From a virus, in the IMG/VR virus record IMGVR_UViG_3300032323_002779, positions 1 through 64,000 of that record: 64,000 bases of DNA, one strand, 5' to 3'. Both the position numbers and the translations under genes were made by a program. Positions 6,570 through 37,001 of this stretch are shown here, in pieces. Under the pieces are notes generated by a model. The model searched no databases. It had not been told where the DNA came from and was given only the letters and a program-made list of their open reading frames with translations. Each line of letters opens with the position of its first letter. The first letter of the stretch is position 1.

Positions 6570-6600
6570 TAATCAAGAAACTTTAACTAACAACAAAAAA

Positions 6601-6864: not shown

Positions 6865-6899
6865 GAAATTTTATTAACACACTAAAAACAATAAAAATT

Positions 6900-7304
6900 A
6901 TGAATGAAACTATTCACACAGTACCTAAATTAGAGATACTTCAAATAGCAATGGTCTGTCATCAGGCAAACAAAGCGTGGTGCGATGCGCACGGGGATTC
7001 AACACAAAAAAATTGGGACGAAGCGGAAAATTGGCAACGCCAAAGCGCAATTAATGGAGTGATATTTAGGATAGGAAACCCCGATAAAGGACACGATGCG
7101 CAACATAACTCTTGGTTAGATGAAAAAGTAAAAGACGGTTGGGTTTACGGCGAGGTTAAAGATGCCGAAGCCAAAACACACCCTTGTATAGTTCCTTTTG
7201 AAGAACTGCCTGAATTCCAAAAGAAAAAAGACGCTTTGTTTTGCGCTATTGTAGATGCCTTATCTCAAGGTAAAACTCTTGTTTTAGAAGATTTAAAAAA
7301 ATAG
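6900..7304 (+). CDS. RyR-domain phage protein
   Basis: HNSWLDEKVKDGWVYGEVKDAEAKTHPCIVPFEELPEFQKKKD matches the RyR repeat pattern. Confidence 0.8.
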   Translation: MNETIHTVPKLEILQIAMVCHQANKAWCDAHGDSTQKNWDEAENWQRQSAINGVIFRIGNPDKGHDAQHNSWLDEKVKDGWVYGEVKDAEAKTHPCIVPFEELPEFQKKKDALFCAIVDALSQGKTLVLEDLKK

Positions 7305-7307
7305 AAA

Positions 7308-9516: not shown

Positions 9517-10464
9517 ATGAAAGACAGTCATATAGATTATTCAGATTACTACGAAAATGGTGGAAAAGTAGATACCAAAATACCTTTAAGAATTAGAAAA
9601 GAAATTTATGATGCGGACGGCGAAAGACGCATCGATGAAAGAGCGATAGAGGTTTTAACAGACTACGCTGAAAATTTACCACAAACCAAAGACTTAAATA
9701 CCAACTCAAGAACAGGAAGTTATTTTCCTGAAAGACAAAGGCTTCATCGGAAAATTATGGATTCTTTTAAAAAGGATTTGGTTTGTATTGAAAATGACGA
9801 ACCAATCGCTATTCTTATGGGAGGTTCTCCTGCGAGTGGAAAAAGCACATTCTTGAGAAAATACGCCCCGTATTTGCTAAAAGAAGAAATTTTAAAAGTT
9901 GATGCTGACGAGATTAGAGCAAAACTTCCTGAATACAGAGGTTGGAACGCAACCCAAACACATCAAGAAACCAAAGATATTGTTAATACACTTTTGAGTG
10001 ATAGAACTATTGGAATTCCTTGTAAGTACGATGTTATTTATGATGGAACTATGAATAGCACCAAGAGTTATTATCCGCTAATTGCCCTATTGAAAAAATT
10101 AGGGTACAAAATCTTTATCGTTTATATCGATAAGGTTGAAGAAGAAGTTATTAAAAAACGTGCTTTAGAAAGGTACAAAAAGAGTGGTCGCTTCGTCCCT
10201 ATGGCGGTAATAGATGATTTCTTTACAAGGGGCAAAAGCGCACTTAACGAACTAAAAGACAAAGCGGACGGTTATATGATTGTTGACGGGTCAGGCGGAG
10301 ATTACAAAGTAATTGAGCGTGGGGGAATGAGATTGCCTAAACGCCGTGCTTACTCGAAATTGGGAGTTCCTATTGCGCAGTTAGAGAAAGAAAGTAAAAT
10401 GGAAAGTGGTGGGGCTACTGAAAGCAGAACGCCTGACTATTTAAGAATGTTTTTGGGGAAATAA
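9517..10464 (+). CDS. Zeta-toxin-like P-loop kinase with C-terminal PDYLRMFLGK tag
   Basis: GGSPASGKST, VDADEIR, IYDGT and RYKKSGRFVP; GG motifs near both ends. Confidence 0.85.
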   Translation: MKDSHIDYSDYYENGGKVDTKIPLRIRKEIYDADGERRIDERAIEVLTDYAENLPQTKDLNTNSRTGSYFPERQRLHRKIMDSFKKDLVCIENDEPIAILMGGSPASGKSTFLRKYAPYLLKEEILKVDADEIRAKLPEYRGWNATQTHQETKDIVNTLLSDRTIGIPCKYDVIYDGTMNSTKSYYPLIALLKKLGYKIFIVYIDKVEEEVIKKRALERYKKSGRFVPMAVIDDFFTRGKSALNELKDKADGYMIVDGSGGDYKVIERGGMRLPKRRAYSKLGVPIAQLEKESKMESGGATESRTPDYLRMFLGK

Positions 10465-10465
10465 A

Positions 10466-11362
10466 ATGAAAAACTTCGCCTTTATATTGGTAATAGAAAA
10501 CATAAAAAACCCAAACTTAATTTCAAGTGATGGGGTTAAAAACAAGTATAAAGGTGCTTACAAAAAGATTTTTGATATTTTAAATGAAGATTTTGTATTT
10601 GTTGAATTTGAAAGCGAAGACGAAGAGTTGATTGGAAACGATTTTTACTTGTATTTCAATCTCACTCCTGATTTAGAAAAATTACAACGAATAAGTAAAA
10701 TTCCAAATGTGAAAATAATTAGTCAAAGATATGGGTTAGGCGGAAGAACGATAGCCCAAACTCCTGCTCCCAAGAAAGACCGTGTTTATGGAAGCGATTT
10801 GAACAAGAGTGATTCGTCAAAAGATTTGTCAAGCGCAAAACTAATCAAGTTTGACGAAAAGACGCTTGAGGCTATTAAAAATAAGGTTCGGGAGCATAAT
10901 GAGGAACACCCTGATAAGAAAATAAACTTGTCAAGTGCTAAAGCGGTTGTTCGTAGAGGAATGGGGGCTTATTCTAAATCCCACAGACCGACTATCAAGG
11001 GCGGTAAACCGAACAGTAGAGTTGCTTGGGGATTAGCAAGATTAAACGCCTTTACATACAAAATTGTGAACGGCAAAAGTAAGTCGGGAAAATATAACCA
11101 AGACGATGATTTGATTGAGGAATTAGGTTTTAAAGTTGCTAATTATAAAAACGGCGGAGAAATGAAAAAAGACATACGTTGTATCAACTGCGGTTGGGAA
11201 TGGAATAAAAAGGATTCCGAGTTATGGGATATGTATGTTTGTCACAAGTGCGGTTTTGACAACACAACTTTCTATACTTCTATTCCTGTTAATAATTATA
11301 GCAAGGGAGGTAAAGTAGAATCGAAAAACCCTGACTATTTAAGAATGTTTTTAGGAAAATAA
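10466..11362 (+). CDS. Multi-module protein (DUF5824-like module plus Zn ribbon) with C-terminal PDYLRMFLGK tag
   Basis: VRRGMGAYSKSHRP...WGLARLNAF and CINCG...CHKCG; modules bounded by YGLGG, YKNGG and YSKGG. Confidence 0.65.
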   Translation: MKNFAFILVIENIKNPNLISSDGVKNKYKGAYKKIFDILNEDFVFVEFESEDEELIGNDFYLYFNLTPDLEKLQRISKIPNVKIISQRYGLGGRTIAQTPAPKKDRVYGSDLNKSDSSKDLSSAKLIKFDEKTLEAIKNKVREHNEEHPDKKINLSSAKAVVRRGMGAYSKSHRPTIKGGKPNSRVAWGLARLNAFTYKIVNGKSKSGKYNQDDDLIEELGFKVANYKNGGEMKKDIRCINCGWEWNKKDSELWDMYVCHKCGFDNTTFYTSIPVNNYSKGGKVESKNPDYLRMFLGK

Positions 11363-11366
11363 AGAT

Positions 11367-12359
11367 ATGAGCAACAAGTTATTAGCACCTAACGGCAAAC
11401 CAACCAACCTAAATGCTATGCAGTACGAATTAGTTCGTACCCCTGCGTTTAAAAAGTGGTTTGGGGATTGGGAAAACGACCCTGCTAATGCGAGTAAAGT
11501 TGTTGATGAAAATGGAGAGCCTTTGGTTGTTTATCACGGAACTAATAGCGATTTTACAAAATTCAGTTTAGAAAGAGTTGGTTCAAATGTTGATTACGGA
11601 ATGTGGGGAAGTGGATTTTACTTTTCTCCCTTGAGGTCATTTAGCAAATATTACGGAAGTAAGATTTTAAAATTATTTTTGAATATTAGAAATCCGTTTG
11701 TTAGGAATCCAAATATTCAAGGAAGTACTGTTCAATTCAAGCCTGTATATGGTAAAGAAGCATCTCTTAATTTAAGAAATCAAATATTATCATATAACTA
11801 TGATGGTGTTTTTCAATACGAATCGGGTCAAAAAAATCCGCTTATTCAAATTGTTGCGTTTCAGCCAAACCAAATAAAACTTGCTGACGGAACTAATAGG
11901 TTGTTTGATGCTAATTCAGACGACATTAGATTTGTAAAAGGAGGAAAAGTTAAAGGGGATTGTTATTTAGTTGCAGGTCAAATTGCAATGGAAATAAGAA
12001 GTAAAAAAATTGACTACAAAGGAACGCCTTATTTGGTTCACGCAGAAGTTAAGCATAGTACTTTAGACGGAGTTCGTTTTGGACACGCTTTTATTGAGGA
12101 CGATGAAAACGTTTATGATTTTTCAAACAACAGAGAAATTATAATGCCAAAGCAATTATACTACTATTTTGGGGACATAAACCCAAAAGACAAAAAGAAG
12201 TATAGAAAATATACTTTCAAACAGGCAAGAGAAAAAATGTTAAGTACAGGCAATTATGGTTGTTGGGATATAGATGTTGAGTTTAATAGCGGAGGGGAAA
12301 TAGTTAAGTCGTACAAAATGGAAATCCCCGATTATTTAAAAATGTTTTTAGGATTTTAG
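11367..12359 (+). CDS. ART-PolyVal-like ADP-ribosyltransferase domain plus Cys-His-Asp protease-like domain, with PDYLKMFLGF tag
   Basis: FKKWFGDW...GEPLVVYHGT...GFYFS...FLNIRNP...YDGV...VAFQPNQIK, followed by GDCY...GHAFIE...VYD. Confidence 0.75.
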   Translation: MSNKLLAPNGKPTNLNAMQYELVRTPAFKKWFGDWENDPANASKVVDENGEPLVVYHGTNSDFTKFSLERVGSNVDYGMWGSGFYFSPLRSFSKYYGSKILKLFLNIRNPFVRNPNIQGSTVQFKPVYGKEASLNLRNQILSYNYDGVFQYESGQKNPLIQIVAFQPNQIKLADGTNRLFDANSDDIRFVKGGKVKGDCYLVAGQIAMEIRSKKIDYKGTPYLVHAEVKHSTLDGVRFGHAFIEDDENVYDFSNNREIIMPKQLYYYFGDINPKDKKKYRKYTFKQAREKMLSTGNYGCWDIDVEFNSGGEIVKSYKMEIPDYLKMFLGF

Positions 12360-12362
12360 GTT

Positions 12363-12914
12363 ATGGAAAATTTAGAAATTTGGAAAGACATATCCGAATA
12401 TGAGGGACGCTATCAAGTATCTAATATTGGTAGAGTAAAGTCTGTTGCAAGAATAGTTGAAAGTAGAAAAGGTGTTTTCGGTAATAAAAAAGAGATTGTT
12501 TTAAAGCCAACTAAAACTAAAAAAGGATATTTAAGAATTAAACTATGTAAAGTTTTTTGCGAAAAATCTATTGAGAATAATTTTTACATACATACTTTAG
12601 TTGCTAAATCATTTTTAGAAAACCCTTTAAAAAAACCTCAAGTTAATCACATTAACGGAGTTAAAGACGATAATAGAATTGAGAATTTGGAGTGGGTTAC
12701 GGGTTCTGAAAATGTAATACATTCTCTTAATAATAATTTAAAAATACCACAGAAAGGTTCTGAACACGGAATGTCAAAACTTACGGAAAAGGAGGTTTTA
12801 GAAATAAGAGCAATAGGGAGGTCAAAAACATTAAAAGAAGTTTCTTTAAAATACAATGTTGACCAATCTTTGATTAGTTCAATCTTGTTAAATAAAATTT
12901 GGAATCACGTTTAA
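12363..12914 (+). CDS. NUMOD4/HNH homing endonuclease
   Basis: EIWKDI...YQVSNIGRVKS (NUMOD4) and VNHINGVKDDNRIENLEWVT (HNH). Confidence 0.92.
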   Translation: MENLEIWKDISEYEGRYQVSNIGRVKSVARIVESRKGVFGNKKEIVLKPTKTKKGYLRIKLCKVFCEKSIENNFYIHTLVAKSFLENPLKKPQVNHINGVKDDNRIENLEWVTGSENVIHSLNNNLKIPQKGSEHGMSKLTEKEVLEIRAIGRSKTLKEVSLKYNVDQSLISSILLNKIWNHV

Positions 12915-12928
12915 AAAAACAATTTAAA

Positions 12929-15900
12929 ATGCGAAAAGGCAAAATAAAATTAACTCAAAAAGAAGCAGAAAACACACCCGCAGGAGGTGTTGTTGTTGGT
13001 AAAAGAGATGGTCAAACAATGATTTATGATGACGCTTCTCTTGGAGGGTATTTTGTAGGTAAACTACATCGTGACGGGGGTATCAAAATGATTAATAAAT
13101 CAACGGGACAACCTTTGGAAGTTCAAGGTTCGGAGGTCATTATTACCGCTCCTGCCGTAAACGACCCTACTAAAAAAGAGTTTGAGGGCAAGATGATGAC
13201 TAATCGTGAAATACTTTCTAAAATTAATTCGGACGGTGGTGGCGTGTCTTTTGCGGACGGAGGCGATATTCCCGCTAAAATCCATACAACTGATTGCGAA
13301 TACAAATTTGGCGGAAAGTTGGTTAAAGACACCGACATAGCGCACTCTTTAGGTATGAACTCTACCTTGAAAAAAGGAAAACAACAATTTTCTTCAGGAG
13401 ATACAACTTATGACGTAGATGGTATTTATAATGCTATTAAAAAGGGCAAACTTCGCTTAAAAACTAAAGAGATTGAAACTTTCCCGATGAAGTACCCTGT
13501 GTATGACAAAAATTACGCAGAAAACCACAAAATTGATTTCAGAAAACCAAACGGGATTACTGTTCGCACAGAAAGTGGCGAAGAGGTTTTGATTGACGGT
13601 AATCATAGAATGAATGATGCCTACCTAAAGGGCAGAAAAACTATGAAAACTTATTACATCGAAGACCCAAAACAAATAGCCAAGTTTGCCAAAAAGAACA
13701 AATTTGAGTTAGGCGGGGAAAATAAAGTTGGCGGTCATTTATCAAAAAACAAATCATTGAAGCAAATTGCTGAAATGCACAATGTTTCTTTGGCTCACAT
13801 TAACGAAGAACTTGCGAAAGGTTTGGAGGTAGAGAAAGAACATTTTTCTGATTTTAAAGAGCGCACAAGGGTTGCTAAAGACCATTTAGTAGAAAACCCT
13901 AACTATTACACTATTCTTGCTAAAGCAGGGCTTAAAATGGGTGGACGTGTTCAAAGACAAGAGTTGGTTGAGAAATCGAAAAAAGGCGATACCCCTGCAA
14001 GAGATTTGAATAATTACAATGACATTATGGATTTAGAAGCAGACGGAGCGGTAGGTGGAGATAGTGGTTTGGCTTTTGCTGATGGTGGACAGGTATCTGA
14101 TTTGAAAATAGGAGATGTTCTTGAAATAGATTCAAATAGCAAGTATAGCGGACTGTCGTTGTATGTGCCGAGTGAAAACAACACTTATTTTTTTAACAAC
14201 GGAACTCAATTAAAATTAGTTAAGTTAAATAGCGGGGGAGATGAAGATTATAAGTCTTTTAGTTTAGAACAAGCGGGAGAAAAAATAATTGTTTCAATCG
14301 CAAACATAAGTTTGCAAAAAATGATTAATGAAAAATCCTTAAAAAAGGTTTCTTTTGCTGATGGCGGAATAACGCCGTATGATGCTAATGAAGAGGGGGA
14401 TTCAGTTGATATTGTTGAAGACGAATTCGCAAAAGGCGGGGTGGTTTATGATACCACAAAACCAAAAATTGAAAAAGTAACTATAAAAGAAACAAGGTTT
14501 GATGCGAGTTCTCCTGTTTATTCAGGTAGCCGACAAAACATCGTAGGTAAAATTGCTAACAATGTTTCTGAATTGCAACAAATTGTTTCTGACTACATAG
14601 GTTCAAGTCCTAAAGAAGAATACGATTGGATTAGTTTTTATGTGAATGATGCCTCAAGAGGTAAATATTATGTAGATTTAAACAAAGACAAGAAAAACAC
14701 GGTAAAAAATGTAAACCCCGAAACGCTTAATTCTGTAAACTTTAAAAGAGTAATAGATGCTAAAGATTATTTAGTGAAAAACTACGATTGGACTGACTTT
14801 TTTGAGGGCGCAAGTAATATACCTGCTCGTAGAGGCAAAACTGTTGAAGGAGTTAACGTGGTTTACTTTGATGTTGACGGAAAAACACGTCTAATTCAAG
14901 ATGTCAGAAATCCATTTCAACTTTATAATTTTTTAAAGAAGTTATATAATGACGGTAGTCGTTATGTAGAATTACAACCAAGCGGTTATGGAATTGTTAA
15001 ACAATTCCCTAAAATTATTCCAATCACTAATTCTGCTTGGCAAGACATACTTTTTGTAAAACCTGAAAAAGAGGCGGTTGAAGCAATTATGAACACACTT
15101 GCTTTTGCTCTTTTCCCTAAATTAGATTTTTCTAAATTTAATAATAGGTCTAATATCCCTGCTTCAACTTCTGCTTACAAAGCAGACAAAGAGGTTCAGT
15201 CAGTTTTGATTAAATACGGAAAAGGCAACGAATATACCGCATTGAACGGGGAATCTCTTTTATCTATGATGCAAGATATTTGGAACTCAAATGGCAAAAC
15301 AGTAAGAACGATTCAGATACAACCTAAAGGCAGGATAGCGCAGTTGTCTGTTTTAAAAATAATTGACTTGGTTGAAAAACCTTTTAATATTGAGTATGAA
15401 ATTAATCCTGATAAAATTACACTTAATGAATTAAGAGATAAATTATCAAAAGGAGAAGAATGGTACAATGACTTGGATTGGACGAGTTTCTTTAAAGAAA
15501 ACACTCCTGCCTCTTCAACTTCTGTTTCATCTCCAAAAAAAGAAAATGTTGTTCAATCAGTAAGGTTAAATTTTGAAAAACAAGACGGAACGCCATATAA
15601 TAAGATAACGGCAAATTCGGGCAGAGAACTCTTTAAAGAACTTGAATATGCTGAAAATAATTGGTTGACTGCTGAAGATGATTTTTTCAGATTTCAGTTC
15701 ATTGCTTATTATACGGATAGTAATGGCATTGGTAAATCTATGTCCGAACAATTTAATTTTGGAGATAAATTTTTTCTTCCAAGTAATTGGTCTTACGACA
15801 GTTTTAGAAGATTAGTCTATTATGATTGGTTTGGTAATAAGTTAGATTTTAGCGAGTTTTTCCATAAAACATACATTGCTTCGAGCGAAAGAGAAGTTAG

Positions 15901-18592: not shown

Positions 18593-18598
18593 AAAAAA

Positions 18599-21357: not shown

Positions 21358-21360
21358 GAT

Positions 21361-22950: not shown

Positions 22951-22951
22951 G

Positions 22952-23227
22952 ATGATAGAAGAAGTAACAAAGCGGAAAAAATATTACCAAGATTTTGGTA
23001 AACATAAAAACGTGTCTTTAAGTAAAGTTGAGGTGTTGAAGCACCCTGAAATTCCAAACACTTTTTTTATTCACGTCAATTACCATATTGGAGAGGGCGG
23101 TATTTACAAGGAAACAGAGATACTTGAAACATACATTCCTGAAAAGGGTTGGCAAAGTTTAGAAGACGGAATGACAAGGTTGGAATACGGTGCTTTTTTA
23201 GGCGATTTAAAGCCAACAGAAATTTAA
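22952..23227 (+). CDS. Hypothetical protein
   Basis: 91-aa ORF in the operon. Confidence 0.65.
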   Translation: MIEEVTKRKKYYQDFGKHKNVSLSKVEVLKHPEIPNTFFIHVNYHIGEGGIYKETEILETYIPEKGWQSLEDGMTRLEYGAFLGDLKPTEI

Positions 23228-23243
23228 TTTTAAAAGGTAAGAG

Positions 23244-24374: not shown

Positions 24375-24389
24375 TTAAAAATTAAAAAT

Positions 24390-27300: not shown

Positions 27301-30300
27301 TATTAGACCATATATCGAACAAAGAGATTGTTAAATCTTCTAATTTAGAAGAAATATGTAAATTAACAGGAAGCGAGTTAATGGATTTTGAAAATCGTAA
27401 AATTATTGATGGTATTAAAGTTGTAGATATTAGAAATGCTTTAGTCATTCACGTTAGAGAGGGTCAATACGCTAAAGGTGGTTCAATCCCTAATAATTAT
27501 GAGGGAAGAGAACCTGAAGATATTTGGAATAATTGGGATTTATCACAAAAATTACATTTTTTAAGTGACCATACCGAAGAAGTTTATGGAAGAATATCAG
27601 TAAAAGGAGAAACAAATGATGAAATAAACGAGTTTTTCGGAAAATTGATTTATAAAAAATATGAGGACTTACCTCTAAACACAAAATTTGCTTTAGTTAT
27701 GCACACAACTCGTGGTCAATACGCAAGTGGCGGTTCATTAGGCGAAGAGTTAATGGGAGGTCAATCTAACGCAACTTTAAAACCAAGTGGTTATCATTTA
27801 GTTTCTGCAAAAGGTAGAGAAATAATCGTTTCTGATGACGGAGGAAACTCTAAAGAGAGATGGGTTAAAAATAACGGATTTAGTGGTTATAGACTTGTTT
27901 ACAAAGGAAACGACTATGAGTTTACAGATAGTTTTGAGGGAGGCGGAATGTTCGACCCAAACGTTTCTGACGGAACTCAATTTATGAATGGGGTTTATGC
28001 TAACGGCGGTTCGATTGAAGAGGGCGATAAAGTTACAATAACAACGAGTTCTTTAGGAAAAGACTATGTAGGTATGTCAGGAACTATAACTTCAAGAAAG
28101 TTGTTGAATGACAAATATTCTGTTAGATTATCAAATGGACTTGAAATGGCTTTTAGCAAAGACGAATTCAAACATAATTCTATAAATCCAAGATTTGCCA
28201 AAGGCGGATTTGTAGGAACAGTTGAATTTAATGCAGGAGATATTGTTTGGCAAAAAGACGAAAAACGATACGCTTTTGTAATGAATAATTACGGCGACCC
28301 TATTAACGGAAGTAGCGGAGAGATTAGACTTGACACAACAGGGAATACGCCTATTTTTACTTATAATAAAAATTTTACAAAGGAAACAGGTTACAACCTT
28401 GTTAAATTAGGAGAAAAAGGCGATACAGGAAAATTTACTCCTGAAGTTCTCGCTGAAATGAAAGAACAAGGAAAAAAGTATTTAGATTCTGCAAAAAGTA
28501 ATAAAGGAAGCCAACAAAAAGAAAATATCGCTTACATCGAAAAAGTTGTAAGAAGAACTCTTGACGGAGAGTTTGACGATATGGTTAAACCAACTATCTC
28601 AAGTGAAACTACTTATGTTCCAAACGCAGACGTAAAGGAATTAAGTGTGGTTGTTAAGGGGGAATTGAAAAATTTAACGGGTTCTGATATTGTAAACGGA
28701 GTTTATATCAAAAATACAGGCAAATCTACTCCCAAAGCAGATGCCAATGCCGTGTTTGCTAAAATCCTTAAAGATGCTAAAGAAGCAAAGGTTGGAAAGT
28801 CTAAAAAATTCGATGCTACTGATTTGAAGAAAATAAATCTTGAAATGGTGCAAAAACTTGTTGAAGCAGGTTATACAGAACAACAAATAAGAAATATTAT
28901 TTTCGGCTACGCTTTTGATAACGAAATTATTGCTGATAACGAACTTGAATACGATAATGGTATTTTTTCTTATGAAGAAAGTTATGTTGCTCAAAAAGTA
29001 GATGGTTTGGTTCAGGCTAAAAAAGAGAATGAGTTTGTATTAGGAATTGAATATCCTGATTTTGATTGGCAAGGTATTATTAAAAAATACAAAATATCTT
29101 CTAAACCAAAAGATTTGGTTCGCAAATTAAGAGCGGGAAGTTGGGGTCATACTGAATATTTCTACGAAGTGTTCGTAGGGGAAAATATTGTGTTAGGTCA
29201 CAATTACGGATACAAAAATTTTGATGCTGACGGAAAAGTGAAAGACGACTATATTGAGAAAGGTAAAAAAGTTTCAGACCCTACTAAACAAAATGCTTGG
29301 CAAAAAGAAAGAGAGTATAGAGCAGGTTTTAATGGTGGTTATTGGTATATCGTTTCTTCAAAAATCGAGATTATCGATGATGTTTTGAAAACCTTACTTG
29401 CTCAAAAAGGAGGGTATTGCAAAGAAATATCGTTTTATGATGATAATTTTGCTGAAACATTAACTGAAAACAAAATTTCTTTTGCTGATGGTGGCGCAAT
29501 CGGAATCGGTAAAAATGGATATGTAGCCTTTTACAAAGGAAAACGTATTGAAGTTTATGCTGACACTATGTATGAAGCACAAAAGACCGCTTCTCAACAT
29601 TTTAAAGCACGAAAAGATTACGATGTAAACGTTGTATTGGCAGAGGTTGACGGTAAGCCTTATATTAACTCTACTATGTTTGCTGACGGTGGCTCTATGT
29701 CGGAAGACGTGTCGGAGTGTAAGAAACTTGTTTCTGCTTTCTGTAAAGAATTTGGAGATAAATTTGGTCTTAATGAAGAAGCGATTTTAGAAAAAGTTAA
29801 GTTTAGAGATTATCTTGGATATGGCGCAAGTGTTTTTGTTAGTCTTTCAGTTTCTTCAAATGTTACAGATTTAAAAGTAGGAGAAACAAGACCGACAGGA
29901 GGTTATATAATTTTTACAAGTGACATTAATCCAAATGGAGTTACAGGTAAAGACGATATAGCAAGAACTTACACTATTGATATTGAAATAAAAGGAAGTA
30001 AAAGATATACCCAAAGAAGAACGGAAGAGGGTAGATACTTTAAGTCTTACAATTACGGAAGAACAATTGAGGAGGCTATGGATAAAACCGATACTAAAAT
30101 AATTTACGACCTATATCCTTTAGAGAAAAAAGATGATTTAAAATTTAAAATGAGTCATCTATTTGCTGACGGCGGAGGTGTTTCAGGAAAATTAGAAAGC
30201 GGTGTTTATAGAGTTGGTAAACCAACAAAAGTTTCGGCTAATTTGTACGAACAAAAAATTGCTGAAATTTTTGATAATGGAGATATTTCAACTGCAAGTG

Positions 30301-32735
30301 ATTACGGAAGAAAGTTGGGCGATTTTAAATCTCAAAAATATCCAATAATTACCAAAGAGCAATTAGAGAATCAATACAAAATGGCTGACGGCGGAAGTAC
30401 AGGTTCAGGTTTAGACCCTGTAAAAGTAAAAGTAGTTATGGCGGTAGGTCTTGATAGCGCAATTGAGTTCTATGATGCTGACTACCCAATCAGACCTTAT
30501 CAGTTACTTGAAAGAGCAGTAAGAGCAGGTTATATTACTCTTGACGAAATAAACGAAAGAGTTGTTGATTCTGCTATGGAAACTGCTCAAGATAGCGAAG
30601 ATATGGAGGAAGTCGGAAGTAGTGATTTTGGGGCTTATTTGCGTGATTTTTTAGACGAAGCAGGTTTTAAAGTTGGATATGTAAATGGTCGATTGACACG
30701 AGAGTATGCTAACGGCGGATTTATGAATGATGTTTATGCTAAAGGTGGTATATTTAATGACAATAACGCAAGTGTTTTTGGTTCTATTTTCCCGATTGGA
30801 ACTGAATTTAAAAGCGGAATTTACAGAACAAATATTGGAATAATAGGTGTTACCGATGTAAAAAACATTAATGGGTACGATTGGCATATTGTAACAAAAT
30901 TACCTTACTACGAGGGTGGTCTAACTACTTACGCTTATGCAGGTAAGTTTGTAAATGCAGGTAAATTACGTCCGCTTAATAACTACCATTATAAAAGCAA
31001 AGGCGACCCTATGATTAAATTATATAAGGATAAAAAAGAACCATTAAGAAATTCTGTAAAAAAGGTTGAAAAACAACATCTTTTGGCATTAGAAATTTTT
31101 AAAGAAAAAATGGAAAAAGGGGACTTTTCAGATAATAGTTTTGAAAATGATGTTTATGCTGACGGCGGATTTATGAATAATGTTTATGCTGACGGCGGTG
31201 GTGTTGATATGTTTTCAGAATTTGAATTAGACAAAAACGGAAATTTTTCTTCAACAATAAACGGTAAAAATTATGAAATAATTTACCGAGATGATAAAAG
31301 CCAATTGTATGACCTTTTTGAAAATGGAAAAAAAATAAGAAGCAGTAAATCTCTCCGTGATTTAATGAAATTTCAAAAATTTGCTGACGGCGGATTTATG
31401 AACGATGTTTATGCTGACGGTGGAGATTTAAGTGGTGTAGAACTGAATTTTACATTTGATACAGAGGGAGATGCTGAATATGAATATCCGCAAGAAGTTG
31501 AAAAAATTAGACTTTTGAGAGAAAGAATTAATTTTGATGAAGTTAGAGGTTCTATTGATTACGGAAAGACCAAAGACAATACTAATTTGGAGTTTTATAA
31601 AAACGGTAAATTGGTTATGACTTTGAAAGGAGATTACGATACCGCTTCTGAAATTTTAGATACTGATGTTGAAATTTTAGGTTCTAAACACAAAATTAAC
31701 TACCACCCTTACGATGGTATGGGAGGTGTAGATTACTACGCTCTTAAAAGCCAATTAGAAAAAACGGTTTTTGCTGACGGCGGAAGTACCGAGCAAAATA
31801 ATTGGTTAGAAAACCTACCTTATAAATTTGCTATTGATTTCGCTAATAAATTAGCAAAAAAAACACATAAAGACGTATTTGTTTACTACTATAAGCACGA
31901 TGATTCTTATGCGATAGACACAAAACCTTTAACTAATGAAAGAAAACACTATGAGTTAAAAGAAATCGTAAAATATTCGGACGGCGGTTTTATGAATGAT
32001 GTTTATGCTAAAGGTGGTTCAGCAGATAGTCTTTCTGTAAATAAAGCAAGTATTCTTTCTGCGACAAAAAAATGTACTGACGGAGATTCTGATAGAAGCA
32101 CTTGTCAAAGCGGAAATTTTGAAGTAACTATGGTTTATGATTACGGTACATTAGATTTAGATTTTGTTTATTTGGACTATAATAATCCAAGATTTAATCC
32201 GTCTAAAGAGCATTACGCTTCTTATAGTTTTACAAAAGGAGGTAAAGGAGTTTTAACTGATTTTGACCAAACTGTATATACTAAACAAGGAAGAAGAACA
32301 GATGCGAAAACAATTATTTCAAAAACTATTGATGTGTTAAAATCTTTAGGCTATCCTGTTGATTTAATTGTAGATTCAGATGGAGAGGAAATACAAGATG
32401 CTAAATATGCTAACGGCGGAATTTTTGACGACAATGACGGGTTTATGAGAGCAGACAATAATAGAAATTTCAGATACCCTGAAATGGAAGTTTATGTAGA
32501 AACTTTTGAAGAACCGATTGATTTGACGAGCAATATTAGTGTTCAAACAAATGAGGTTGTTGTTAGACCTCTTGACGAAGACATCGATTTAAGCGATGAT
32601 GGTAGAATAAGAGCAAGAATGACACAATCACATAGAGGTTCTGCTGAAAGTTTTTCTAAAATAAATCCAAGAGCATTTGAGTTTATTGGCGAAGAATTAC
32701 CAATGCCTATATCTCACACACATAAAAACGATTAA
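24390..32735 (+). CDS. 2781-aa GG-motif-segmented polyprotein-like protein
   Basis: Uninterrupted ORF with about 30 [FY][AE][DKN]GG-like motifs separating unrelated modules; basic N-terminus. Confidence 0.85.
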   Translation: MNATLLKKYETIDQSKVSEKDKKVLEQVKKLTNSFEETDEAKNKVAEKILDQITMLNPDAVKKPQVVAQKVAKAKKVAKAKKPATTSTAKGSGNNIMSVAKEIQKAGESWKDAMERAKQVLKERREKVVEQKKTELEKLYALVKTKKELQGFAKSDIQRDAVRDAKPRGARVVTKAGKTYNQYGEWDNKIGRKYWETRDRHSDRLAPNYPKDMPKLASGGAVSDAPFSVEVFKTKLRFDNQLPSSSKGDFPTFAKAKEFAIDMIDNGNYYAYINSKNGYLWGVDSKGVEQFADGGMFNTNVHSGTAFMDNAYFADGGELDDEMLKSIYSITELTSKREHKAYIALQNKNNKYDIIFEPYEKYINNREDYKDYKKLYQAGVRHLDGTPYYDNGGNVGQKKYQVQYNVGNVKYLVSFHDGIQKHKDGSNFYEIRTFNNKKDLEDFLNKLSKQGYREMGYNTAFDNGGMFEAPIAKMKEVKGKTVSVPVSEEIYSSEINEFVNYVDSFYGKKGIYAEDLNGGFTKAEIRKAVNKYIENLNSNGTWGGGDSLDRERVRQILQPSYSLLENGGGIDGGMNKLTIQDVSFANGGGVGKMPEWSVSITSEDGDTYDWVGFAKNEDDALYKAEQEAGFESVESGINEITDADGNKIEYANGGSLPFMTDPNFGNFQDTGMFESGGSMANLTEQEFLKQYFGVNVFTENPSQYFEIKKMSSSNDDKIDAFVKELKADGFTVKKRAYSDFTSVMGVKKKGSYELGGAFVMTDLAGHTGGSDGLGNPMPLSGTSGTYYTGLVGETGAMSSGELFARGGAVGDNVLGLKKGDIYKIIDTFHTASYDTTMSVFTFIDYEDKYGEIVLKSIPFPPNPKRKNDFIYVSDVSSDGIKILNDEEIGQVISRKYKNFVQNNYEAGGVMAQNQQVINDASQPYVITEAFGNPAQQLGMLAKGGSIENQYEGRTPEDVWDNWTEKQKIHFLLDHISNKEIVKSSNLEEICKLTGSELMDFENRKIIDGIKVVDIRNALVIHVREGQYAKGGSIPNNYEGREPEDIWNNWDLSQKLHFLSDHTEEVYGRISVKGETNDEINEFFGKLIYKKYEDLPLNTKFALVMHTTRGQYASGGSLGEELMGGQSNATLKPSGYHLVSAKGREIIVSDDGGNSKERWVKNNGFSGYRLVYKGNDYEFTDSFEGGGMFDPNVSDGTQFMNGVYANGGSIEEGDKVTITTSSLGKDYVGMSGTITSRKLLNDKYSVRLSNGLEMAFSKDEFKHNSINPRFAKGGFVGTVEFNAGDIVWQKDEKRYAFVMNNYGDPINGSSGEIRLDTTGNTPIFTYNKNFTKETGYNLVKLGEKGDTGKFTPEVLAEMKEQGKKYLDSAKSNKGSQQKENIAYIEKVVRRTLDGEFDDMVKPTISSETTYVPNADVKELSVVVKGELKNLTGSDIVNGVYIKNTGKSTPKADANAVFAKILKDAKEAKVGKSKKFDATDLKKINLEMVQKLVEAGYTEQQIRNIIFGYAFDNEIIADNELEYDNGIFSYEESYVAQKVDGLVQAKKENEFVLGIEYPDFDWQGIIKKYKISSKPKDLVRKLRAGSWGHTEYFYEVFVGENIVLGHNYGYKNFDADGKVKDDYIEKGKKVSDPTKQNAWQKEREYRAGFNGGYWYIVSSKIEIIDDVLKTLLAQKGGYCKEISFYDDNFAETLTENKISFADGGAIGIGKNGYVAFYKGKRIEVYADTMYEAQKTASQHFKARKDYDVNVVLAEVDGKPYINSTMFADGGSMSEDVSECKKLVSAFCKEFGDKFGLNEEAILEKVKFRDYLGYGASVFVSLSVSSNVTDLKVGETRPTGGYIIFTSDINPNGVTGKDDIARTYTIDIEIKGSKRYTQRRTEEGRYFKSYNYGRTIEEAMDKTDTKIIYDLYPLEKKDDLKFKMSHLFADGGGVSGKLESGVYRVGKPTKVSANLYEQKIAEIFDNGDISTASDYGRKLGDFKSQKYPIITKEQLENQYKMADGGSTGSGLDPVKVKVVMAVGLDSAIEFYDADYPIRPYQLLERAVRAGYITLDEINERVVDSAMETAQDSEDMEEVGSSDFGAYLRDFLDEAGFKVGYVNGRLTREYANGGFMNDVYAKGGIFNDNNASVFGSIFPIGTEFKSGIYRTNIGIIGVTDVKNINGYDWHIVTKLPYYEGGLTTYAYAGKFVNAGKLRPLNNYHYKSKGDPMIKLYKDKKEPLRNSVKKVEKQHLLALEIFKEKMEKGDFSDNSFENDVYADGGFMNNVYADGGGVDMFSEFELDKNGNFSSTINGKNYEIIYRDDKSQLYDLFENGKKIRSSKSLRDLMKFQKFADGGFMNDVYADGGDLSGVELNFTFDTEGDAEYEYPQEVEKIRLLRERINFDEVRGSIDYGKTKDNTNLEFYKNGKLVMTLKGDYDTASEILDTDVEILGSKHKINYHPYDGMGGVDYYALKSQLEKTVFADGGSTEQNNWLENLPYKFAIDFANKLAKKTHKDVFVYYYKHDDSYAIDTKPLTNERKHYELKEIVKYSDGGFMNDVYAKGGSADSLSVNKASILSATKKCTDGDSDRSTCQSGNFEVTMVYDYGTLDLDFVYLDYNNPRFNPSKEHYASYSFTKGGKGVLTDFDQTVYTKQGRRTDAKTIISKTIDVLKSLGYPVDLIVDSDGEEIQDAKYANGGIFDDNDGFMRADNNRNFRYPEMEVYVETFEEPIDLTSNISVQTNEVVVRPLDEDIDLSDDGRIRARMTQSHRGSAESFSKINPRAFEFIGEELPMPISHTHKND

Positions 32736-35700
32736 TTTAGAAATACTATGAAGTTATTTAATAAAACAATAGATAGACAATTATTTAGTCAATATTCACT
32801 TGGTAGCGACCTCTCTAAACAAGAGGTTGTTGTCAAGATATTTAATCCTCAAGGCGCAGGGACGTGGTTTATATTAAATTCCGACCCTGAAGACCCTGAT
32901 TACCTTTGGGCTATTGTTGATTTGGGGTATGGTGCTGAAGTTGGTTCGGTTAGCCGTAGTGACCTTGAAAATTATCGTGGTCGATTTGGATTAGGCTTTG
33001 AGCGTGATTTGTCTTTTGACCCTATAAACGCATTAGAACTTTATCAAGGGCTTCTTAATGGAGAATATTATGCTGACGGCGGAAACCTTTCAAGAGATAG
33101 AAAATTCTTGAATCATAGACAGAAATACGAAGTTCGTTATTCAAAGGGTAAAAATCGAAAAGGTTATGGTTATGCTGACGGTGGGGATATTTCAAGCGAA
33201 TTACAAGATTTGTTTTCTAAAATGAAAAACAGTTTAAGTAAAAAAGATTTTGATTCTTTTAATGAATTATCTAATCAAGTTCACGAAATATCTGATTCAA
33301 GGGGATTAAATGAAGAGGAGTACGATTTATGGGATTCTTTAAGAGAAGAAGAAAGAAACTTGCAAATGGAAAATTTTTTAAATAAATCTAAATATGCTGA
33401 CGGTGGCGACATTGAAAGTTTTAGCGATAACCAACGTATGATTATGAATCAAAACGTTGAGGTAGAGCATCATCACGAGGAATTAGAGGATATTTTAGAA
33501 GACGAAGTAGAAGTACCTGCTTGGGTTGTCGCAAAAATGGAAACCGCAACACAAAACCTTTCAGACATTACTCATTACCTTGACGGACAAAAAGAGATAA
33601 TGGAAGACCAATTAGAGGGAGATGATGACGATGATGACGATGATGACGATGATGATGAAATGACGGAAATCGAAAACAAAGAAGTTGTCGAACCAATAAA
33701 TGTTTCTGCGGGAACAAAGGCAGAATTGACTAAAAAGTTTACTGATGATGCTTGGGGGAACTTGAGAGGTTTCTTGAAAGGTATGGAGGGAATTGACCTG
33801 CGTGACGATTATACGTTTGATTACAAGGACGAACAGTTTGAAGTTGAGCCAATCATTAACTCTGATGAAAATGGTGTTTCTAATGCCGTGTTTACGATTT
33901 TTGACGGGGACGGAGAAGAACAAGGAGAGATTAGTTATAGCCGTGAGGGTGGAAAACAAAAGTTTACTGCTAACTCTGATTATTTTGAGTGGAGAAATGC
34001 GAAGTTTGAAGACGGCGGGTATTTTGACGGAACTATCCCGAATGTTTCAACCTATATGAGTACTTATGCTGATGGTGGAGAAATAAATCTTTGGAAGAGC
34101 GAACCAAATAACAAACCTGAAAAATTAAAAACTTTTAAATCATTACGGGCTTTTAATGCGTATATGACTAAAAACGCTAAATCCTTTAGAGATGAACATT
34201 CTAAAAATGGTGCAGGATTTTATGGGTTTGAAGCAGATGCTACTCAACAAGAAGTTGAAAGAAGTTTAGAAAATTTATATACTTCTGAAAATCAATATGC
34301 TGACGGTGGATTTATGGCTAATGTTTACGCAAAAGGCGGAGAAATTGCCAAAGCAGAAATTCTTGGTTTGAGCAAAAACATAATGGGAACTACTGATATT
34401 GAAATGAAAATTTCAGGAATGAGAAAATCTCAAGACTTCATTGTTTACCCAATTAGCAAAGACGATACAGATAAAATTATTACTATTCAATCTTCTACGA
34501 GAATTGGTAAAATTGATTTAAGTTCAGGTCGTGGATTAATGAGCCAAAGCCATTCTAACGGTGCTTACTTTGTGCATTTCCAAATGGACAAACTTACTCC
34601 TTTTATGTTAAGTGAAAGTGATTTACAAGACCTAAAATCTCACATATTTAAAACTGCGGGAGATAATGTAGGTTCGAGAGGTATTGTTTCTGATAATTCA
34701 GGGGCTTCAAGAATATTTGCTGACGGAGGAGAAGTTACGCCAAAATTAAATATGGAAATAACAAAAAGAGCAGAAGAAATTTATGCTAAAAATGGCGGTA
34801 AAACAAAAAAAGACTTTGACATAGCGTATGATAAGGCAATAAAAGAATTTGGCTACGACCCTGAATATTTCAAAAAAGAAATGCGGGAAATTGGTTCAGA
34901 ATATGGGTCTGAAGATGATGATTTTTACGCAAAAGGCGGAGAAGTTTATTCGCACAAACATAGTAAAGGTTGGGGCGAGGACATAACTATTGAGTTGTTA
35001 CAACCTACGGCTAAAGGTTGGAAAGTTAAGCAAACCACTAAAAAAGGAAGAAAAACATCAACCAAAACTGCCTTTTTCAGTAAAGAAGAAATAAGCGAAC
35101 TATTTGAAAAACAATATGCAAAAGGGGGAATTACTTACTACAAAAGCGAAAATGAACGTTTAAGCAGACCTAAAAGCGATATGGAGGAAGAGGTTTTTCA
35201 AAAAGTAAAAAACCAAATCAACCCTGAATTATTTGTTGGGAACTTTGGTTGGAAAACCCCGATGAACAAAACTACTTATGGGTATTTGTATTCGTTGGAC
35301 GACTTCGACAAAGATTATGTGAAAGACGTAAAACTTAAACAGGGAGAGGTAATTTTTAGATACGTCACTCGTATTACGGCTATTGGCGGAATGATGCCTT
35401 TTATTAAGATAAACATTGAAAAAGGGCTTTTGTATTTTCCTGTTTCAAACGATAATGATGATATAATTTTTGAAACAAAAGGCGTGACTCCGTTGTGGAT
35501 AAGTTTAATCGAGGATAGTTTCGCTAAAGGCGGAATTGTTGTTACTTCAATCAAAGATATACCGAATTTTGAGGAAAGGTTGAATCAAGGTAAAATAACT
35601 TATCGTGGATTAGGTTTGGGCAAATTATTTGATGATTTCTATGAATTAACAGGAACAACGGGAACAAGAATAAAAGTTGACGGAAAAGAATACTATATTA

Positions 35701-36182
35701 CCGATGAAGAATTTAAAACTTTCTCAAGAGATGCTGACGGAAAATTGAGAGTCCGTTTTGATGCGCCTTATAGAAAAGGATATGCTAACGGTGGAGGGAT
35801 AGGTTTTATTCCTATGGATTTAGAAGAAACTTTGCGTATTACGGCTAAATGGGGCGGAACTGACATCAAGGGTGTTATTGGTATTTTAAATGCTATGATT
35901 GATTCAGGTTTGACAGACGAAGATTTACAACCAAAACCAACAAAATCGGGTAGCGCATATCAAAACGCACTCGCAAAAAAGACAAAAGAAATTTGGGCTA
36001 AAATTGAGCCGAATTACAAAGGCGACTTCAAAGGCTATATGTATTATAGCACTATTCTTCACTTGGTTGAAAGGTCAACAACTTCTGATAATACTTTGAA
36101 GCGATTTAAACCTTTCAGAAAGTATCAAAAAGATTCTTATGCTGACGGTGGTTTTATGAATGATGTTTATGCTGACGGCGGA
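30705..36182 (+). repeat. Six dispersed 45-bp repeats encoding YADGGFMNDVYA[DK]GG
   Basis: Copies start at about 30705, 31155, 31380, 31974, 34296 and 36138, spread across two genes. Confidence 0.9.
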
Positions 36183-37001
36183 CAAATCAGAGTTGGCGAC
36201 AGATTTAAGTACGATTGGACTGACGGCAGAACAGGTGGTGTGAGAGGTTATGATGTTGTTGAGGTAATAAAAAGCAACGCCACAAGTAGCAGGGACTTCA
36301 AAACTAAAGTTATGGTTTTGAAAGTAATTGAAAGTTCAGACCCAAGCAACGTTGGACGAATAGATGAAGACCTTAAACCAAGTTTCAAAAAAGCAATTAG
36401 ATTAGGTATGATAGTGCCGTTGCAAGAAAGAAGAAGAAAAATGGTTGACGAATTTTACGCTAAAGGAGGAATGTCAAAATTTGAGAAACTTTCTGCTAAA
36501 GTGGCTAAAGAGTACGAGGGTAAACCCGTAAAAAGCGAATATCAAGACGAATACGGTAAAGTTTATTCTAAAGCGGAGGCGCAAGAAGTGGGCGACAAAG
36601 TTGCAGGAAAAGTAAAGGCGATGCAAACTGATAAAAAATCATTTGGAGGCTTTTTTAGCGGGGCGAAAAAGTTGGTAACTCCGAGCAAAAATTACCCTAA
36701 TTTAAGAGGCAAACAGGTTATGCTAAAGTCAGGTAAATATGTTCAGGTTTTTGAACAAATGGACAACAAAATAAGTATTGTAGAGTTGGGCAAAATAGGT
36801 TCAGGCGTAAGACCACATTATATTGACATTTCTGAAGTTGATATGGATTCTTTTAAAGCAGGAGGTAAAATTGCAAGGAAAAGAGTGAACGGCGGAACTG
36901 AAACCCTAAAAAGAGCAAATGAATTGGCTAAAAAAATCCGTAAAGACGGAGAAAGTTGGTTAGACGCTAAAAAAAGAGCGTTTGCGCAATTGAAAAAATA
37001 A
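32748..37001 (+). CDS. 1417-aa GG-motif-segmented protein with N-terminal DUF2958-like module
   Basis: KIFNPQGAGTWF...AEVGSVSRSDLE...FERDLSF; about 16 GG motifs; poly-Asp tract; basic C-terminus. Confidence 0.85.
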   Translation: MKLFNKTIDRQLFSQYSLGSDLSKQEVVVKIFNPQGAGTWFILNSDPEDPDYLWAIVDLGYGAEVGSVSRSDLENYRGRFGLGFERDLSFDPINALELYQGLLNGEYYADGGNLSRDRKFLNHRQKYEVRYSKGKNRKGYGYADGGDISSELQDLFSKMKNSLSKKDFDSFNELSNQVHEISDSRGLNEEEYDLWDSLREEERNLQMENFLNKSKYADGGDIESFSDNQRMIMNQNVEVEHHHEELEDILEDEVEVPAWVVAKMETATQNLSDITHYLDGQKEIMEDQLEGDDDDDDDDDDDDEMTEIENKEVVEPINVSAGTKAELTKKFTDDAWGNLRGFLKGMEGIDLRDDYTFDYKDEQFEVEPIINSDENGVSNAVFTIFDGDGEEQGEISYSREGGKQKFTANSDYFEWRNAKFEDGGYFDGTIPNVSTYMSTYADGGEINLWKSEPNNKPEKLKTFKSLRAFNAYMTKNAKSFRDEHSKNGAGFYGFEADATQQEVERSLENLYTSENQYADGGFMANVYAKGGEIAKAEILGLSKNIMGTTDIEMKISGMRKSQDFIVYPISKDDTDKIITIQSSTRIGKIDLSSGRGLMSQSHSNGAYFVHFQMDKLTPFMLSESDLQDLKSHIFKTAGDNVGSRGIVSDNSGASRIFADGGEVTPKLNMEITKRAEEIYAKNGGKTKKDFDIAYDKAIKEFGYDPEYFKKEMREIGSEYGSEDDDFYAKGGEVYSHKHSKGWGEDITIELLQPTAKGWKVKQTTKKGRKTSTKTAFFSKEEISELFEKQYAKGGITYYKSENERLSRPKSDMEEEVFQKVKNQINPELFVGNFGWKTPMNKTTYGYLYSLDDFDKDYVKDVKLKQGEVIFRYVTRITAIGGMMPFIKINIEKGLLYFPVSNDNDDIIFETKGVTPLWISLIEDSFAKGGIVVTSIKDIPNFEERLNQGKITYRGLGLGKLFDDFYELTGTTGTRIKVDGKEYYITDEEFKTFSRDADGKLRVRFDAPYRKGYANGGGIGFIPMDLEETLRITAKWGGTDIKGVIGILNAMIDSGLTDEDLQPKPTKSGSAYQNALAKKTKEIWAKIEPNYKGDFKGYMYYSTILHLVERSTTSDNTLKRFKPFRKYQKDSYADGGFMNDVYADGGQIRVGDRFKYDWTDGRTGGVRGYDVVEVIKSNATSSRDFKTKVMVLKVIESSDPSNVGRIDEDLKPSFKKAIRLGMIVPLQERRRKMVDEFYAKGGMSKFEKLSAKVAKEYEGKPVKSEYQDEYGKVYSKAEAQEVGDKVAGKVKAMQTDKKSFGGFFSGAKKLVTPSKNYPNLRGKQVMLKSGKYVQVFEQMDNKISIVELGKIGSGVRPHYIDISEVDMDSFKAGGKIARKRVNGGTETLKRANELAKKIRKDGESWLDAKKRAFAQLKK

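Follow-up and report, generated by a model that had tools for sequence, protein, structure and literature searches.

The first 64 kb of the IMG/VR virus record IMGVR_UViG_3300032323_002779 (positions 1 to 64,000; hereafter the window) contain, between positions 9517 and 37001, three giant and four smaller genes that encode polyvalent proteins, in which mostly unrelated modules are joined by one recurrent peptide, termed here the Gly-Gly seam. The occurrence of the seam is non-random, and it is with certainty the border of autonomous, exchangeable modules. In addition, it is very likely a protein-level signal, and more than a hinge or a DNA joint. Cleavage of the seam by a protease appears to be its best explanation, to which sequence comparison lends about even credence.

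Distribution and form of the seam

A search for [FY]xxGG in 9517-37001 returned 60 copies, in agreement with the approximately 60 estimated in a first-pass annotation of the window, which had also placed about 30, 16 and 8 copies in the three giant open reading frames (ORFs) and further ones in the ORFs starting at 9517, 10466, 11367 and 23244. The counts obtained were 30 (24390-32735), 16 (32748-37001) and 7 (12899/12929-18592) in the giant ORFs, the last with six of its seven copies within the first 520 amino acids (aa), and 1, 3, 2 and 1, respectively, in the smaller ones. The strict form [FY][AE]xGG is present 46 times, 25 of them in the product of 24390-32735 (W_B), 15 in that of 32748-37001 (W_C) and six in that of 12929-18592 (W_A), compared with means of 0.35, 0.17 and 0.12 and maxima of 3, 2 and 2 in 2000 residue shuffles per ORF; the other ORFs of the window with at least 100 aa (9,665 aa) hold 0 copies.

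The full seam comprises seven residues, aromatic-Ala-x-Gly-Gly-x-[IVLTFM], with variation in the first position, which is aromatic (or L/M), and in the second, which is Ala or Glu. The second residue after the glycines (P2') is I/V/L/M/F/T in 55 of 59 window seams versus 17 of 39 other GG sites, the background being 31%. Upstream, positions P10-P6 tend to F/L-M-N-D-V, which is the conserved 10-aa spacer that makes doubled seams, with two GG pairs 10 aa apart. Six doubled copies are present in the window, as 45-bp units at 30705-30749 (plus strand), 31155-31199, 31380-31424, 31974-32018, 34296-34340 and 36138-36182.

The same peptide recurs throughout the family of W_C. A search found 264 homologues, and the counts given here refer to the 120 that were listed, which hold 1,140 strict seams in 164,105 aa, with at least two in all 120 and at least five in 106. 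The GG columns are invariant, or nearly so, where the sequences can be aligned. In the proteins encoded in 9517-37001, the median spacing from seam to seam is about 84 aa; in the homologues, the distance is exactly 10 aa in 132 of 1,020 cases. Among 1,023 distinct family sites that are followed by a module of at least 30 aa, P2' is I/V/L/T/F/M in 97%.

Proteins built with the seam

All seven genes lie on the plus strand. W_B (24390-32735; 2781 aa) contains about 30 seams that delimit modules of 10-429 aa, and W_C (32748-37001; 1417 aa) begins with an N-terminal DUF2958 domain and contains 16 seams and 14 modules, designated A-N. In W_A (12929-18592; 1887 aa), six seam-delimited modules, including DUF5661, occupy the first ~510 aa and are followed by a 1380-aa motif-free body with internal repeats, a C-terminal ART-like domain and a terminal seam, FETGG, after which come the residues KVN; translation probably starts at the ATG at 12929, and not at the TTG at 12899, which would give a form of 1897 aa. 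Among the smaller ORFs, the product of 9517-10464 resembles a Zeta-toxin-like kinase and bears a 16-aa leader ending in YENGG and a 16-aa C-terminal tag after MESGG; that of 10466-11362 has three modules, the seams YGLGG, YKNGG and YSKGG, and a 16-aa tag; that of 11367-12359 consists of an ART-PolyVal domain, the seam FVKGG, a papain-like module, the seam FNSGG and a 20-aa tag; and the conserved 376-aa product of 23244-24374 has an 11-aa N-terminal leader ending in YKEGG.

Known families account for a minority of these modules, most of which belong to no known family. Pfam recognised Zeta_toxin in ORF 9517 (E 3.7e-25, 89 bits), ART-PolyVal (PF18760) in ORF 11367 (E 4.5e-22, 79.8 bits with a cut-off of 31.2), DUF2958 at the N-terminus of W_C (E 3.3e-15) and DUF5661 in W_A, and the C-terminal ART of W_A scored 28.3 bits, below the cut-off. 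Homologues of W_C hold LPD11 (114 bits in homologue P0039), Zeta toxin and RelA/SpoT domains. For ten larger modules, Pfam gave nothing above cut-off in searches at E≤0.1. The expectation that motifs surround a "ParB-like" and a DUF5661-like module thus holds in part: DUF5661 does lie between two motifs, and the ParB-like identity is unsupported, since the segment 13316-13717 matched 0 Pfam families at E≤0.1. Other proposed placements were recovered, with a motif at aa 108-112 after the DUF2958 domain (aa 26-99), one at 189-193 after ART-PolyVal (aa 47-177), FETGG after the ART of W_A, and two tandem homologous modules in W_B (aa 909-1031 and 1032-1115) that are 41-43% identical.

Two further features of the giant proteins were observed. 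The body of W_A (14441-18580; aa 515-1894) contains seven copies of another junction, [DN]-[WF]-x(2-3)-[FY]-F with a Ser/Thr/Pro-rich stretch behind it, at aa 630, 860, 953, 983, 1092, 1299 and 1424, where it divides internally repeated homologous domains and looks like a second kind of seam. Moreover, W_B at aa ~62-123 (24570-24760) and the C-terminal module N of W_C (36867-36998) have in common a helical module, ...GESW.DA..RA..., with 29-43% identity, in which the homologues of W_C also end, and which may be a common anchor of these two adjacent giant proteins.

Modules as units of homology and exchange

The segments between seams had been described as mostly unrelated to each other, and the comparison of modules agrees. 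When segments of the window are cut at the seam, they match relatives from the first to the last residue, with modules present, absent or reordered. For instance, aa 1769-1929 of W_B correspond to a 95% identical module that, in the related locus L003, is found on the other side of the 429-aa module. Out of 24 segments of W_B with at least 30 aa, 11 had no match in the relatives retrieved, some of which are cut by locus ends. Of the distinct internal ends of high-scoring segment pairs, 24 of 41 for W_B and 14 of 22 for W_C lie no more than 10 aa from a seam, compared with 21-22% for random positions, and the motif-free body of W_A has no such pattern (1 of 25).

In the homologues of W_C, modules are matched end to end in 97/97, 15/15, 2/2, 92/105, 7/7, 68/68, 2/2, 3/3, 22/23, 30/30, 21/21 and 10/10 cases, and the architecture of the family consists of a core, A-D-F...M-N, plus variable cassettes. 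A 773-aa ORF of the related genome G001 is arranged as ART, ART, papain-like, two modules and tag, where those two modules are the last two of window ORF 10466 and the new joints lie exactly after GG. The end-to-end matches, the positions of alignment ends and the joints of G001 all show that gain, loss and re-joining of modules in homologues map to the motif. None of the refuting outcomes named in the first-pass annotation that could be examined was observed.

Whether modules occur elsewhere as stand-alone genes had been posed as a check, and two of them do. The papain-like module has its counterpart in gp61 (114 aa) of mycobacteriophage Barnyard, whose borders are the same and which has no seam, and module F corresponds to ORFs of 120-140 aa on contigs of up to 33.7 kb, which end where the seam would start. 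The one relative of stand-alone module F on a viral contig is located on an unrelated contig without polyproteins, and, for that reason, it is uninformative on whether the seam serves for docking.

Position of the seam relative to folded domains

Structural models place the seam, as far as they can be trusted, in flexible linkers between domains. In the AlphaFold2 (AF2) model of ORF 11367, built from a 29-row alignment, the papain-like domain (aa 198-309) is confident, with a predicted local distance difference test score (pLDDT) of 66-92, and it is flanked by both seams, the FVKGG segment (189-193) and the tail after FNSGG having a pLDDT below 50. In the model of W_C aa 1-1200, built from a 40-row alignment, confident domains were obtained at 147-213, 323-422, 464-505, 532-638, 664-717, 744-786, 811-919 and 935-986. 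The nine seams in this interval (aa 147-986) lie without exception in segments with a pLDDT below 50, which make up 316 of these 840 residues (37.6%), a coincidence with a probability of ~1.5e-4 by chance if the seams are independent; the non-seam GG pairs at 401-402 and 683-684 sit in confident domains. Thus, in the comparison with AlphaFold domain borders that the first-pass annotation had called for, no testable seam was located within a folded domain.

A peptide constrained at the protein level

Every position of the motif is encoded by several synonymous codons while the residue is fixed. At the same time, the DNA of the motif is more alike than expected: codons are biased to GCT GAC GGC GGA, with GGC for the first Gly in 25 of 46 copies versus 14% elsewhere, and the six doubled units have a mean nucleotide identity of 84%, with the same codon used for the same residue in 72% of cases versus 45% expected from codon usage. 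The fixed residues with synonymous codons and the likeness of the DNA, taken together, indicate that the seam is both a recombination joint and a constrained peptide. The likeness of the DNA, the module swaps exactly at the seam and its location in disordered linkers would also suit a purely evolutionary device, that is, a flexible Gly-Gly hinge and DNA micro-homology for in-frame cassette shuffling with no reader of the protein. This account is, however, improbable. It does not predict that, at every position, the residue stays the same while its codons vary synonymously, nor that the hydrophobic P2', which lies outside the repeated DNA core, is kept almost throughout the family, and a degenerate seam persists in distant relatives with different DNA. 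Moreover, recombination and a protein-level reader are not mutually exclusive.

The seams at the extreme ends of proteins bear on this question. ORF 9517 and its orthologues bear a leader of 16-20 aa that ends in ...DYSDYYxxGG, and the N-terminus of ORF 23244 reads MELIMDYKEGG. A shared C-terminal tag of 16-20 aa, ...PDYL[RK]MFLG., directly follows a seam on three unrelated proteins, those of ORFs 9517, 10466 and 11367 (10417-10464, 11315-11362 and 12300-12359), and is conserved in the related genomes G001 and G002, where both the leader and the tag of ORF 9517 are kept; this tag is a candidate for a removable targeting peptide. The orthologues of W_A end in GG+KVN in three genomes, in GG+IL in G007 and in GG+YVRI in G011, so that, in the five genomes, all end in GG, any residue and a hydrophobic residue, within 2-4 residues past GG. 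Although no modules are joined by these terminal copies, five genomes conserve them with differing tails. The full seam, including P2', is thus retained even at places with no module behind it, which neither a simple hinge nor a scar of recombination accounts for.

The residue directly after GG (P1') is also constrained. At the 1,023 family sites it is never Pro or Trp, it is depleted in L/F/W/Y (6.4% versus 17.3% background) and in K/R (7.4% versus 14.5%), and it is enriched in Glu, Ser, Asn and Gln. Such a bias is expected of a new N-terminus that avoids N-degrons or of a protease subsite, and it could also arise from linker composition.

Docking as a possible alternative to cleavage

An uncleaved seam might act as a docking or loading motif for the capsid interior, for an internal membrane or for a chaperone such as the CobS/MoxR-like AAA+ ATPase encoded between the polyprotein genes, and the intact string of modules would then be packaged by multivalent binding. 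The stringency over seven residues on both sides of GG would suit a binding motif equally well, doubled seams with a 10-aa distance are common and would raise avidity, and terminal copies with 2-4 residues behind them would remain functional binding sites. It is also in favour of docking that no protease has been identified, and that a related motif is conserved in the N-terminal arm of a capsid candidate, which the cargo could mimic.

This candidate (48933-49634, plus strand) is the most conserved protein of the genome, with 98% and 90% identity in G001 and G002 and 565 representative homologues at E≤0.001, and it has no Pfam or PHROG match. In its arm, ~10 aa ahead of the conserved core, lies FFRADGG, which G001 and G002 have without change. 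Across the family, [FYW]-x-[NY]-A-[DN]-G stands about 10-15 residues ahead of a TSQPY core, with Ala in 86 and Gly in 68 of 116 sequences. This family motif is related to the seam and not the same, since it is without the second Gly and the hydrophobic P2', and the relationship is suggestive only.

A similar pattern, hydrophobic-x-N-A-x-G, was observed in 6 ORFs versus 0.87 expected, 6 being also the maximum reached, in one of 500 shuffles. These ORFs include 1327-2004, 49729-50157, 51808-52230, 56809-57531 and 62542-63096, and the enrichment is too weak to build on.

Several observations reduce docking to an unlikely, if serious, alternative. Exactly one seam is present per joint, which corresponds to a need of separation and not of docking. 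Stand-alone homologues of modules have no seam, so the seam is not an address label intrinsic to the module, although these homologues come from unrelated viruses. The shared C-terminal tag is already a separate, targeting-like element and itself stands after a seam. In addition, docking does not predict that P1' is never Pro and is poor in N-degron residues.

Search for an enzyme that reads the seam

Among 10 + 6 + 54 ORFs, Pfam found no match to Peptidase_C39 or to an ABC transporter. Clan CE cysteine proteases were not detected by Pfam/PHROGs, in a genome where many ORFs belong to no family, and a regular-expression scan found no HExxH protease within the polyproteins.

The papain/transglutaminase-like Cys-His-Asp module of ORF 11367 (11946-12296, plus strand; aa ~198-305) might be the protease that cuts the seams. 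Its residues C199, H225, H240 and D251 are invariant in 29 sequences and kept in Barnyard gp61, C199 opens a helix (199-212) in the confident AF2 model, and there is a seam on either side of the module. With aa 190-305 as a query, VIA-align gave structural neighbours that nearly all have a papain or transglutaminase fold, and include 3c9q/NTAQ1 (Z 5.2, rmsd 3.6, 104 aligned), LapG (Z 4.5), protein glutaminases, SpvD, SseI, NlpC/P60 and the C39 domain of ComA (5xe8, Z 3.4), a double-glycine peptidase, with many further papain-fold enzymes at Z 3-4; all Z values, at 5.2 or less, are under the stated noise level of the tool. However, the best neighbours are amidases or glutaminases as much as proteases, and Foldseek returned no match at E≤0.001. 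The Barnyard homologue is a separate protein, and the searches made found no such polyproteins in the genome of that phage. Moreover, the module is present in one of five related records, although all of them carry seam-rich polyproteins, and it is absent from a 102-kb record rated complete. Because four of the five relatives are without it and its fusion partners vary, as those of a shuffled cassette do, the module is read from these comparisons as an accessory cargo cassette with a plausible fold, and not as a general processing enzyme; it is very improbable that it cuts the seams.

A second candidate is a 261-aa core protein located in the morphogenesis block (54372-55157, plus strand), a putative SprT-like zinc metallopeptidase with the signature HEFxH...ExEAD, which is the only HExxH found outside a low-complexity protein in the regular-expression scan. 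Its identity with the G001 and G002 proteins is 95% and 89%, its residues H188, E189, H192, E202, E204 and D206 are invariant in 12 sequences, and it had no sequence match in the PDB. On sequence grounds, ORF 54372 may be regarded as a weak candidate for the seam protease. A zincin would favour a cut before the obligatory hydrophobic residue, and, therefore, the scissile bond might be GG-x|hydrophobic instead of GG|x. In distant relatives, five records gave 1, 1, 4, 4 and 0 matches to a DNA pattern for [FY]A[DN]GG, and the polyproteins of the G007/G011 type have a looser seam, hydrophobic-x-x-GG-x-hydrophobic.

Other routes to cleavage were considered and rejected. Succinimide self-cleavage at Asn/Asp-Gly is incompatible with Lys in that position in 10 of the 46 window copies, 2A-like ribosome skipping with the absence of Pro after Gly, and neither the AAA+ ATPase nor the DUF7192 protein encoded in the block between the polyprotein genes is a protease.

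Proposed cleavage of the seam and a possible polyprotein strategy

If a protease reads the seam, the three giant and four smaller genes would yield some 55-60 separate small proteins. The cut would be made after GG, as in sites of the double-glycine, adenain or African swine fever virus (ASFV) type, or one residue later, before the hydrophobic residue, and the short N-terminal leaders and the shared 16-20-aa tag would be removed like capsid-targeting peptides. The enzyme could be the conserved HExxH protein at 54372 or one of the host, and would not be the papain-like module. By analogy with the polyvalent class, the products might travel inside the particle and act at an early stage of infection.

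Several points weigh against cleavage. There is no obvious purpose in cutting off 2-4 C-terminal residues or in freeing conserved decapeptides from doubled seams, for which a binding motif fits equally well, and the preferences at P1' and P2' come from related sequences that were de-duplicated by identical 24-aa context alone. The AF2 model of W_C is poor overall (mean pLDDT 50), and five of its 14 seams, in the all-low stretches 1-146 and 987-1200, are uninformative. As for the enzyme, the genome yielded no recognisable protease of the maturation type or with specificity for Gly-Gly; Pfam/PHROGs identified only an M15 cell-wall peptidase, MPTase-PolyVal (PF18818) had no match in the whole genome even at E≤10, and the papain-like module is scarce among relatives, as described above. 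For ORF 54372, the invariance of the metal-site residues is weak evidence, since the 12 sequences are 65-95% identical; the only SprT-like match of the genome, in this ORF, reaches 14-15.5 bits over 33 residues with a cut-off of 25.6; and the protein is equally conserved in distant relatives with few canonical seams.

The broadest form of the cleavage reading is a true polyprotein strategy, in which a code read by an enzyme, either the HExxH core protein or a host protease, turns three genes into ~55 proteins, many of them lineage-specific and probably devoted to counter-defence, that are made in advance, loaded by means of removable leaders and tail tags and delivered with the DNA, and in which the same code doubles as an in-frame recombination joint. 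This composite is possible and is put forward tentatively. If it were true, the joint would allow single effectors to be exchanged without new genes, promoters or start sites.

The virus record, its relatives and neighbouring genes

The window is part of a single 73,240-bp record, rated complete by CheckV, of an uncultured virus; viruses of this group are present in freshwater samples. All ORFs of at least 150 aa are on the plus strand, and the GC content is ~35%. A terminal repeat was not found in the window's own record, and, among the ORFs scanned with Pfam/PHROGs, no capsid, portal, terminase or tail protein was recognised apart from a weak terminase-like ATPase match at 45778. The more distant relative G007 (72,545 bp) has an exact inverted terminal repeat (ITR) of 123 bp and is also in the ITR class in IMG/VR, which fits a linear and possibly protein-primed genome. 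A 132-kb contig binned with a Sediminibacterium metagenome-assembled genome holds a close relative that is 84% identical over one module and 97% identical over the capsid candidate, and this sequence association hints at a Bacteroidota host.

With the AAA+ ATPase gene as a query, six related IMG/VR contigs (65-93% identity) were retrieved, and ten stretches, spread over seven contigs, matched a DNA pattern of the doubled seam; the syntenic giant ORFs of relatives contain 16-19 strict seams each. Among GenBank phages, a nucleotide search with the conserved block described below gave no match, and a tblastn search with W_C gave a match confined to its DUF2958 part. A 25-aa doubled-seam stretch gave no tblastn match at E≤10.

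The conserved block, located between the polyprotein genes (18599-23227) and present in all relatives, comprises the gene of a 448-aa protein that contains an RG-rich stretch, those of the CobS/MoxR-like AAA_5 ATPase (19945) and the DUF7192 protein (21361), and a 91-aa ORF. In the ESM Atlas, ORF 21361 falls in DUF7192 clusters only and the capsid candidate scored under 0.9, and sequence searches of the PDB with ORFs 18599, 21361, 23244 and 54372 gave nothing meaningful.

Other genes of the window were also noted. An HNH endonuclease ORF (12363-12914; PHROG 59, E 6.8e-44) is located between ORF 11367 and W_A, whose TTG-extended start it overlaps. It has no homologue in G001, where the flanking orthologous ORFs are three bases apart, and a 45%-identical copy occupies a different place in G002, so that it looks like a mobile homing endonuclease. 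The Pfam tallies over the other ORFs, pooled without assignment to single ORFs, include RgpF, a DegT aminotransferase, three families of glycosyltransferases, methyltransferases and a hexapeptide acetyltransferase with PglD_N, which is consistent with a sugar-modification cluster at 223-8573.

Significance and comparison with known systems

The polyvalent proteins rank with the largest proteins of phages and with those least understood, and their disassembly has been an open prediction since 2017. A fixed junction code, with ~1,140 sites in the 120 listed homologues, makes the question of their processing directly testable. The seam can moreover be used as a parser, since in silico cuts yield hundreds of autonomous, fast-turnover modules of 50-130 aa with natural domain borders, which make up a catalogue of candidates for counter-defence proteins. 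If the seam is cut, it would represent a new gene organisation for bacterial viruses and possibly a specific pair of protease and site; if it is not cut, it would be a new multivalent packaging or recognition motif.

In T4, the prohead protease gp21 reportedly removes the capsid-targeting sequence of internal proteins at L/I-x-E, a site that capsid proteins are said to carry too. The likeness lies in the leaders and the shared tag, which are set off from the bodies of the proteins by the seam, and in the related motif of the capsid candidate. The differences are that no prohead protease family was detected in the genome studied here, that the motif is another one and that the cargo of T4 consists of single proteins.

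Double-glycine leaders have a single N-terminal site, with hydrophobic positions upstream, that is cut during export by a transporter-fused peptidase. As in these leaders, GG stands directly before the junction, in 46 of 46 strict motifs, and homology breaks right after it. However, the leader consensus does not fit aromatic-Ala-x-GG, and Pfam found no C39 domain in the ORFs scanned. Polyubiquitin precursors are made of head-to-tail units that end in Gly-Gly, with one to a few residues trimmed after the last unit, which is reminiscent of the orthologues of W_A with their 2-4 residues after GG. In contrast, the modules described here are unrelated to each other and to ubiquitin, and no E1-like or deubiquitinase-like gene was seen.

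Among eukaryotic viruses, pS273R of ASFV and adenain of adenoviruses are clan CE cysteine proteases that cut at Gly-Gly-x. The similarity lies in polyproteins of DNA viruses that have Gly-Gly sites with a hydrophobic residue upstream of GG. The ASFV polyproteins concerned are pp220 and pp62 (PMC10308890). The ASFV and adenovirus systems have an identified clan CE protease, a handful of sites and structural products, whereas the seam has tens of sites, an obligatory hydrophobic P2', unrelated effector-like modules and no such protease found by Pfam/PHROGs.

The tape-measure protein pb2 of T5 is cut after Arg1127 (Linares et al. 2023, PMC10038345), and its record reads ...FVPR|AEGGMMYP around the cut. 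The AEGGMM by the cut resembles FFRADGGM of the capsid candidate and the core of the seam, over five residues that may match by chance. The cut in pb2 differs in that it precedes Ala, four residues before the end of GG, and is a single site in a single protein.

The closest known system is the class of polyvalent proteins that phages and conjugative elements encode (Iyer et al. 2017, PMC5512222), to which the proteins of 9517-37001 belong, and the initial impression that no phage system of this kind had been described does not stand. According to that article, polyvalent proteins have 2-15 domains, their processing into functional units is predicted via embedded zincin MPTase domains, and delivery together with the DNA is predicted for the class. 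The words "linker", "glycine", "papain" and "DUF2958" have 0 occurrences in its main text, and its supplements, which were outside the search, may bear on the seam. Literature searches on polyvalent protein cleavage, phage Gly-Gly polyproteins, crassvirus cargo and internal virion proteins found no description of the seam, so that, within the literature searched, the Gly-Gly seam itself is the undescribed part. The common ground consists of giant multi-domain phage proteins (1887, 2781 and 1417 aa in this virus) with unrelated effector-type domains and extensive mosaicism, and of the signature families ART-PolyVal and Zeta toxin, with LPD11 and RelA/SpoT in homologues. The differences are that a zincin MPTase, a common theme of the class and not an obligatory one, is not detectable in this genome, and that up to ~30 mostly family-less modules of 50-130 aa are joined here by one fixed peptide.

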